Below are positions 59,570 to 59,895 of a DNA stretch of 64,000 nt, piece by piece. Location of the stretch: the NCBI RefSeq assembly GCF_988242995.1, contig NZ_OZ547043.1, one strand, 5' to 3'. Made by a program: the position numbers and the translations under genes. Under the pieces are notes generated by a model. The model saw only the letters and a program-made list of their open reading frames with translations. It was not told where the DNA came from and did not search any database. Every line of letters begins with the position of its first letter. The first letter of the stretch is position 1.

Positions 59570-59895
59570 AATACGCATCAGGTATACACCGCAGCGCCTG
59601 ATGCGACGCTGTTGTGTCTTATCAGGCCTACGAGTTCAGTGCTGTGTGTAGGTCGGATAAGGCGCTCACGCCGCATCCGACAATAACAGCATTGCCTGAT
59701 GCGACGCTGCCGCGTCTTATCAGGCCTACGAGTTCGGTGCTGTGTAGGTCGGATAAGGCGTTCATGCCGCATCCGACAATAACAGCATTGCCTGATGCGA
59801 CGCTTGCGCGTCTTATCAGGCCTACGAGTTCAGTGCTGTGTAGGTCGGATAAGGCGTTCACGCCGCATCCGGCAATAACAGCCTTGCCTGACGCA
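59570..59895. repeat. BIME array (three tandem ~100-bp units of paired REP elements)
   Basis: Three near-identical units each containing GCCTGATGCGACGCT...GTCTTATCAGGCCTAC and TAGGTCGGATAAGGCG...CGCCGCATCCGAC palindromes between holC and pepA. Confidence 0.9.

Follow-up and report, generated by a model that had tools for sequence, protein, structure and literature searches.

A short tract of repetitive DNA separates pepA from holC in Escherichia coli. What kind of repeat is it, and what might it do between the end of one gene and the start of the next? In the window (the whole 64,000-nucleotide stretch of DNA analysed here), pepA, holC and valS all lie on the minus strand, and the array fills the 353-bp spacer from the pepA stop codon to the holC start codon (Table 1). 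A preliminary description of this DNA placed the pepA promoter immediately downstream of the array. Since pepA is on the minus strand, however, it is the stop codon and not the promoter that adjoins the array; on the other side lies the holC start codon. The pepA promoter region faces lptF, about 1.5 kb away. The holC stop and the valS start share one base, at 59100, an overlap which suggests that translation of the Pol III chi subunit is coupled to that of valyl-tRNA synthetase.

Catalogues of REP and BIME arrays go back to the 1980s and 1990s. The array studied here is already known in kind and in place: its locus appears as a BIME-2 in K-12 datasets. The published classification separates two forms. 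BIME-2 elements combine z2 and y REPs with a short S linker and occur in multiple tandem copies, the number of which varies between strains; BIME-1 elements are single-copy combinations of z1 and y REPs whose linker is of the long L type and often contains an IHF site (PMC3333891).

By itself, this array matters little. The practical value of the analysis lies in correcting its orientation (3'-UTR and intercistronic, not promoter-adjacent) and its protein partner (gyrase, not IHF), and in flagging the open reading frames of the repeat as artefacts. The locus is also a convenient natural allelic series (BoxC, one, two, three and four units) for relating REP copy number to read-through into an essential downstream operon. 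Modestly interesting by-products are a BIME-2/BoxC dimorphism at a single site, a clean genealogy of repeat units, the lineage-wise turnover of palindromes beside a holC leader that is itself conserved, and an array into which IS621 has naturally inserted.

Identity and anatomy of the array

Tandem Repeats Finder reported a single array in the spacer, at 59596-59891, with a period of 96, 3.1 copies, 93% matches and a score of 504. A repeat search placed the in-register copies 98, 96 and 96 bp apart. With two REPs in each unit, this is the threefold tandem BIME between holC and pepA that the preliminary description had announced. The self-comparison of 59550-59900 that it proposed as a check on tandem periodicity came out in its favour: autocorrelation peaks at lag 96 with a value of 0.635, against 0.249 +/- 0.034 at other lags and a maximum of 0.414 over 300 random windows from the same 64 kb. 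A REP consensus pattern, for which shuffles expect no match, has four matches in the window, three of them in the array.

Matching was done with Z2, Y and Z1 consensus sequences that agree with those printed in PMC11208160. It resolves the array into three Z2 and three Y REPs with 1-3 mismatches each to the consensus. All Z2 REPs are on the plus strand and all Y REPs on the minus strand, in strict alternation. Each unit holds one of each, with head-to-head joints of 12 nt and tail-to-tail joints of 14-16 nt; the tail-to-tail linker reads GAGTTC(A/G)GTGCTGT(GT). The composition of Z2 and Y REPs, their alternating orientation, the short 12-nt S linker (35 nt in the BIME-1 found elsewhere in the window) and the tandem copies, 3.1 here and one, two, three or four units in other genomes, fit the published definition of BIME-2 (PMC3333891). 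On its sequence, then, the array is a three-unit BIME-2, not an IHF-binding BIME-1.

Table 1. Features of the pepA-holC spacer, its neighbouring genes and two elements used for comparison. Positions are those of the window except in the last line.
Feature	Positions	Strand	Remarks
valS	56245-59100	-	
holC	59100-59543	-	
holC start codon, ATG	59543-59541	-	
holC leader TTTAAATCCACCACAAGAAGCCCCATAT	59544-59571	-	28 nt; AAGAAG Shine-Dalgarno-like motif; directly before holC ATG; not repeat
Half-palindrome CGCATCAGG and 13-nt filler	59574-59595		holC-proximal edge; can pair with 5' arm of first Z2
Z2-type REP, unit 1	59596-59631	+	consensus match; carries IS621 target ATCAGGCCTAC; hairpin -21.9 kcal/mol
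Tail-to-tail linker, unit 1	59632-59647		16 nt, extra TG
Y-type REP, unit 1	59648-59681	-	consensus match
Head-to-head S linker AATAACAGCATT	59682-59693		12 nt; definition in PMC3333891
Z2-type REP, unit 2	59694-59729	+	consensus match; hairpin -23.5 kcal/mol
Tail-to-tail linker, unit 2	59730-59743		14 nt
Y-type REP, unit 2	59744-59777	-	consensus match; hairpin -18.2 kcal/mol
S linker	59778-59789		12 nt
Z2-type REP, unit 3	59790-59825	+	consensus match
Tail-to-tail linker, unit 3	59826-59839		14 nt
Y-type REP, unit 3	59840-59873	-	hairpin met first by the pepA transcript; stem from 59871
S linker AATAACAGCCTT and 11-nt truncated Z2 start GCCTGACGCAA	59874-59896		adjoins pepA stop codon
pepA stop codon, TAA	59897-59899	-	from sequence and annotation
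pepA	59897-61408	-	
pepA promoter region	~61409-61674		
lptF-like gene	61675-62775		diverges from pepA
BIME-1, Z1 REP	16259-16287	+	whole element 16259-16356
BIME-1, linker	16288-16322		35 nt; perfect IHF core AATCAATATATTG at 16298-16310
BIME-1, Y REP	16323-16356	-	
BoxC allele, E. coli O111:H8 strain 99.1145	L004 845-976		example of this allele

The limits of the array had been set at 59570-59895. The array is real, but this start lies about 25 nt too far to the left: 59574-59595 is a half-palindrome only, and 59544-59571 is the conserved holC leader. Minus-strand RNA of 59568-59606, in which the half-palindrome can pair with the first Z2, folds at -17.1 kcal/mol (z = -3.0).

Does the array bind IHF, as the preliminary description implied? 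The idea that it is a BIME-1 (RIB/RIP) has its location to recommend it, since IHF-binding BIMEs are found where this REP cluster lies, at the 3' end of a gene. Its REPs, however, are Z2 and not Z1, and its head-to-head linker is 12 nt and not about 35. The BIME-1 at 16259-16356 served as an internal control. The IHF core WATCAANNNNTTR occurs five times in the window and nowhere within 59544-59896, whereas the true BIME-1 has a perfect core inside its linker. Z1 has no match in the array; in the window it matches only at 16259 and 45948. The IHF claim is thus refuted at the level of sequence by the Z2 REPs, the 12-nt linker and the missing core, and we regard an IHF-binding BIME here as most improbable.

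Other REPs are scattered through the window. A Y(+)/Z1(-) pair at 45889-45976 has a 25-nt linker and a Z1 that matches the consensus perfectly; no perfect IHF core lies between its two REPs. A lone Y-like REP (-) is found at 25813-25846, and a lone Z2-type REP (-) at 63962-63997, at the very end of the window.

The repeat is open to translation on both strands. The two open reading frames called spurious in the preliminary description, 59614-59913 (plus strand, 99 aa) and 59628-59861 (minus strand, 77 aa), exist exactly as it gave them. Might they, with a further one of 64 aa on the minus strand, be real genes? They are open and have start codons. Their translations, however, are periodic copies of the REP sequence, they have no Pfam match above cutoff, and the RefSeq annotation of an identical genome has no gene at this place. 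Between strains, moreover, they change length by whole units or vanish. There is virtually no chance that they are genes, and the earlier verdict holds.

Rfam raises the question of an RNA gene. Its naRNA4 family (RF02564) matches the plus strand at 59747-59822 (82.2 bits) and 59651-59726 (77.9 bits), both beyond the gathering score of 59.5. The strand of pepA, holC and valS stays below that threshold, at 55.7 and 51.9 bits. Taken at face value, the two higher matches would have the array encode naRNA4-like nucleoid-associated ncRNAs that act with HU on chromosome organisation. We think this very improbable. The matching strand is antisense to all three genes, no promoter-like site was found on it, and a 2026 preprint reports REP325 and naRNA4 without measurable nucleoid compaction (bioRxiv 10.64898/2026.03.23.713779). 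The naRNA4 family is in effect one Y-S-Z2 BIME-2 unit; the match therefore confirms the type of repeat, not an RNA gene. With above-threshold matches confined to the strand on which these genes are not transcribed, and the transcribed strand below threshold, we rejected the array as a naRNA4 gene.

Separately, Rfam RF02850 (Ysr276, a Yersinia antisense sRNA) has a full-length match at 60656-60850 on the plus strand, with 180 bits against a gathering score of 100. It sits inside the pepA coding sequence, in antisense, and may simply reflect the conservation of pepA.

Alleles of the spacer in E. coli

Over 1401 bp, the window is identical to strain 2452. How widespread is its form of the spacer? 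The query consisted of the two coding flanks only, so as to avoid genome-wide REP matches, and both flanks lie within 750 bp in 5422 of 5425 genomes. Two systematic samples, of 39 and 60 genomes, were used to estimate allele proportions. In the sample of 60, three units (spacer ~353-355 bp) occur in 27 genomes, two units (~254-260 bp) in 14, and one unit (~159-161 bp) in five, K-12 MG1655 derivatives included. Another 13 carry the BoxC allele (132-133 bp), and in one the flanks are split by IS621 in a Z2 REP. None of the 60 has four or more units. Proportions in the earlier sample of 39 were similar. At 27 of 60, the three-unit form of the window is therefore the commonest allele.

Four-unit alleles are rare. 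We found them in strain E105 (449-bp spacer; L086 352-800) and in L007, the GTDB representative of E. coli (455 bp; 1046-1500). The four-unit spacer of L007 was also used as a query, and the ranking of its matches does not enrich for long alleles; among the matches listed, one genome, E105, has four units and none has five or more. Copy number thus runs from one to four units across the E. coli genomes compared, and the suggestion that it can vary between strains proves correct.

How are units gained and lost? A unit-by-unit comparison with the window gives the order u1, u2, u2, u3 in E105, the two copies of u2 being identical. E105 is the window array plus one exact 96-bp in-register duplication of unit 2. 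The single unit of K-12 joins the Z2 of u1 to the rest of u3 (an in-register u1/u3 chimera), and the two-unit allele consists of u2 followed by a u2/u3 chimera. The L007 array is more diverged, with ~94% identity to the other E. coli alleles and 98-bp units. Within a species, units share diagnostic substitutions absent from their positional counterparts elsewhere (E. albertii, E. whittamii, L007), a pattern of concerted evolution of the array.

Copy number changes, then, as whole 96-bp units are duplicated or deleted in register. The genealogies of the E105, K-12 and two-unit alleles, together with concerted evolution, point to unequal recombination or replication slippage as the probable route. 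Recombination by TnpA-REP, the REP-associated transposase, is a possible alternative; TnpA-REP-mediated recombination of BIMEs has been shown in vitro (PMC3333891). By the list of open reading frames and the RefSeq annotation the spacer contains no gene.

The 132-bp allele shares with the array allele only the holC-nearest sequence and a few bases past the pepA stop. Its sequence is single-copy and is present in 1403 of 5426 E. coli genomes (26%). It contains CCCTCTCCCTTAGGGAGAGGGTTAGGGTGAGGGT, the type-A BoxC/PIT/TMECO motif as tabulated in PMC4666352, and a decayed second copy, and it folds at -49.5 kcal/mol (z = -4.9). In the list of K-12 BoxC elements in PMC4666352 there is no copy near the pepA-holC locus, which fits the fact that K-12 carries the BIME allele.

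A third kind of spacer is found in strain CUVET20-416 (L005 3751-5287), where IS621, a member of the IS110 family, lies between pepA and holC and leaves them ~1.5 kb apart. The allele interrupted here has two units, and the junction, CTTATCAGGCCT^ACG (ATCAGGCCT^AC), falls in the tail of its first Z2. The natural target of IS621 is the sequence shown for the first Z2 in Table 1, with a CT core (PMC11208160). Every Z2 REP of the array in the window has this sequence, giving the IS621 bridge recombinase three perfect natural targets.

Transcription, gyrase and function

The minus strand of 59530-59910, folded as RNA, reaches -165.4 kcal/mol (z = -8.1 versus dinucleotide shuffles); the individual REP hairpins range from -15.3 to -23.5 kcal/mol. 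The first stem starts 25 nt past the pepA stop. Liang, Rudd and Deutscher reportedly found in 2015 that a REP within ~15 nt of a stop codon affects translation; at 25 nt from the pepA stop, such an effect does not apply here.

Do these hairpins end transcription? A consensus scan of 59400-60000 found no hairpin followed by a U-tract on either strand and no sigma-70-like promoter in the spacer. After the last hairpin comes UAUUUAAAU only. The BoxC allele, scanned in the same way, likewise has neither promoter nor intrinsic terminator. Within the spacer, the Term-seq supplements of PMC7815308 list no 3' end; the one that they do record lies 13 nt upstream of pepA. The Cappable-seq supplement has nothing for a holC transcription start site. 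In K-12, directional RNA-seq assembles b4258, b4259 and b4260 (valS, holC and pepA) into one operon, in LB and in heat shock, with its 3' boundary at the terminator that RegulonDB assigns to 'holC-valS'; the meanings of the columns in the table of operons were inferred from the main text of the paper. Coverage is therefore continuous across the one-unit K-12 BIME, and continuous coverage, on which the assembly of operons is based, does not separate overlapping transcripts.

One might still suppose that the array is a complete transcription terminator and that holC and valS are transcribed independently, from a promoter of their own between the array and holC. RegulonDB names a unit 'holC-valS' that leaves out pepA. 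The TTTAAAT in the 28-nt block before holC, conserved across genera, could be a -10 element, and REPs can be partial Rho-dependent terminators (bioRxiv 10.64898/2026.03.23.713779). Set against this are the consensus scan, in which neither a terminator hairpin with a U-tract nor a promoter was found, and the RNA-seq-assembled operon, which joins pepA with holC and valS in several conditions. From the block to the holC ATG there are only ~30 nt, and a -35 element would have to lie in sequence that is exchanged from lineage to lineage. A complete terminator seems to us improbable.

The claim that gyrase acts on such arrays has direct support at this locus. Table DS3 of a Topo-seq study lists the K-12 holC-pepA BIME-2, 83 bp long in a W3110-derived reference that has the one-unit allele, with two cleavage sites in ciprofloxacin (Cfx), one in rifampicin plus ciprofloxacin (RifCfx) and two in oxolinic acid (Oxo) (PMC6379681). 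In general, BIME-2 elements are enriched, transcription-independent gyrase sites that are cut mainly in their Y REPs, and BIME-1 elements are depleted in such sites, with three observed vs nine expected (PMC6379681). Gyrase thus cleaves the one-unit K-12 allele in vivo, and it would presumably do the same to the three-unit array of the window.

What, then, does the array do? We think it probable that this three-unit BIME-2 in the pepA 3' UTR is a hairpin block that protects pepA mRNA, a leaky attenuator before holC-valS, and a site for gyrase and IS621, with a copy number driven by recombination or slippage. The functional part, which we infer, would run as follows. As pepA is transcribed, its mRNA would be shielded from 3'-to-5' exonucleases by the six REP hairpins, which would also partly attenuate transcription running into holC-valS, possibly with Rho. 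The array would be a leaky barrier and not a full terminator, because the spacer has no U-tract terminator and K-12 shows read-through. As DNA, it would be a transcription-independent gyrase site and a landing site for IS621, an element that targets REPs, and its unit number would shift by unequal recombination or replication slippage between units.

The roles of stabiliser and attenuator are suggested by the K-12 RNA-seq coverage and by analogy with REP325. That array, of 12 REPs between tandem genes, stabilises the upstream mRNA and is a partial Rho-dependent terminator. In REP-containing tandem gene pairs the ratio of upstream to downstream expression tends to be higher, and REP effects are context-dependent and often undetectable (bioRxiv 10.64898/2026.03.23.713779).

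The spacer across genera and comparison with known systems

A HolC scan of species-representative genomes gave 80 loci. In 77 of them pepA is directly upstream of holC, with spacers of 62-455 bp. Among these 77, Y/Z2 arrays occur only in Escherichia: three units in E. albertii, four in L007, two each in Escherichia sp. E1V33 and E. whittamii, and one in Escherichia sp. MOD1-EC7003. Other genera carry REP types of their own in this spacer, and about 12 of their loci have BoxC-like elements alignable with the BoxC allele of E. coli. Almost all of the 77 spacers (96%) fold significantly better than shuffles (z below -2), with a median z of -5.2. The holC leader has at most six mismatches in 61 of the 77 Enterobacteriaceae loci. 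Outside it, sequence turnover in the spacer is complete. This leader could combine a Shine-Dalgarno region with an A/U-rich enhancer; alternatively, holC-valS may have a weak -10 element there.

Is the structure itself under selection? On one reading, to which we give little credence, the spacer is a conserved 'palindrome slot', in which one structured element or another of the 3' UTR would be maintained by selection across the Enterobacteriaceae, whichever repeat family it comes from. In Escherichia, an old BIME-2/BoxC dimorphism and arrays of one to four units would then make up a heritable dial that sets pepA read-through into holC-valS, and so into genes that encode the chi subunit of Pol III and valyl-tRNA synthetase, an essential enzyme. 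Several observations are compatible with it. Structured elements are found in 96% of the 77 loci despite sequence turnover; BIME-2 occupies the spacer in five Escherichia species-level genomes, while BoxC, in 26% of E. coli, is homologous to the BoxC spacers of other genera; and K-12 shows read-through.

The array might also be viewed as neutral or selfish repeat DNA, lodged in a space after a stop codon that tolerates insertion, with its structure and its cleavage by gyrase as by-products. We hold this doubtful, though a serious possibility. An unrelated BoxC element replaces the array in 1403 of 5426 genomes, alleles of one to four units coexist, and an IS621 insertion in the spacer is tolerated. 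The effects of REPs on neighbouring genes are variable, and homogenisation within an array is typical of repeat dynamics. On the other hand, nearly every genus keeps a structured, GC-rich palindrome here despite turnover (median z -5.2, 96% below -2), which exceeds mere tolerance, although REP-like elements are structured wherever they land. The K-12 allele, moreover, is cut by gyrase in vivo. The protective and leaky hairpin block that we favour is dispensable, because 26% of E. coli carry BoxC, K-12 has one unit and one strain has a 1.3-kb IS.

How does the array compare with systems already described? The BoxC/PIT/TMECO triplex repeat (PMC4666352) resembles it as a structured, dispersed intergenic repeat that occupies the same spacer, in 26% of E. 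coli genomes and in some 12 other genera. BoxC belongs to an unrelated sequence family, CCCTCTCCC...GGGAGAGGG...GGGTGAGGG, and is not tandemly amplified at this spacer; unlike the BIME-2 array, it is not a known target of gyrase or IS621. BIME-1 (RIB/RIP) elements share with the array the inverted REP pairs at the 3' ends of transcription units and the Y REP. They differ in that Z1 stands in place of Z2, the linker is of the long L type and contains an IHF core, and the element is single-copy.

Closer is REP325, the BIME-2 between yjdM and yjdN from which naRNA4 derives. It too has alternating Z2/Y hairpins between co-oriented genes, and the units of the window score above the Rfam threshold of its family. 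REP325 differs in having 12 hairpins to the six here. At the locus in the window, the orientation that matches Rfam is antisense to transcription, and holC and valS, the genes downstream, are unlike yjdN in being important or essential. Closest of all is the holC-pepA BIME-2 of K-12 itself, in the classification of Gilson, Bachellier and Hofnung as summarised in PMC3333891. The two have in common the alternation of Z2 and Y, the S linker, the tandem arrangement, an extragenic position at the 3' end of a gene and a number of units that varies between strains. They differ only in copy number, one unit in K-12 and three in the window.
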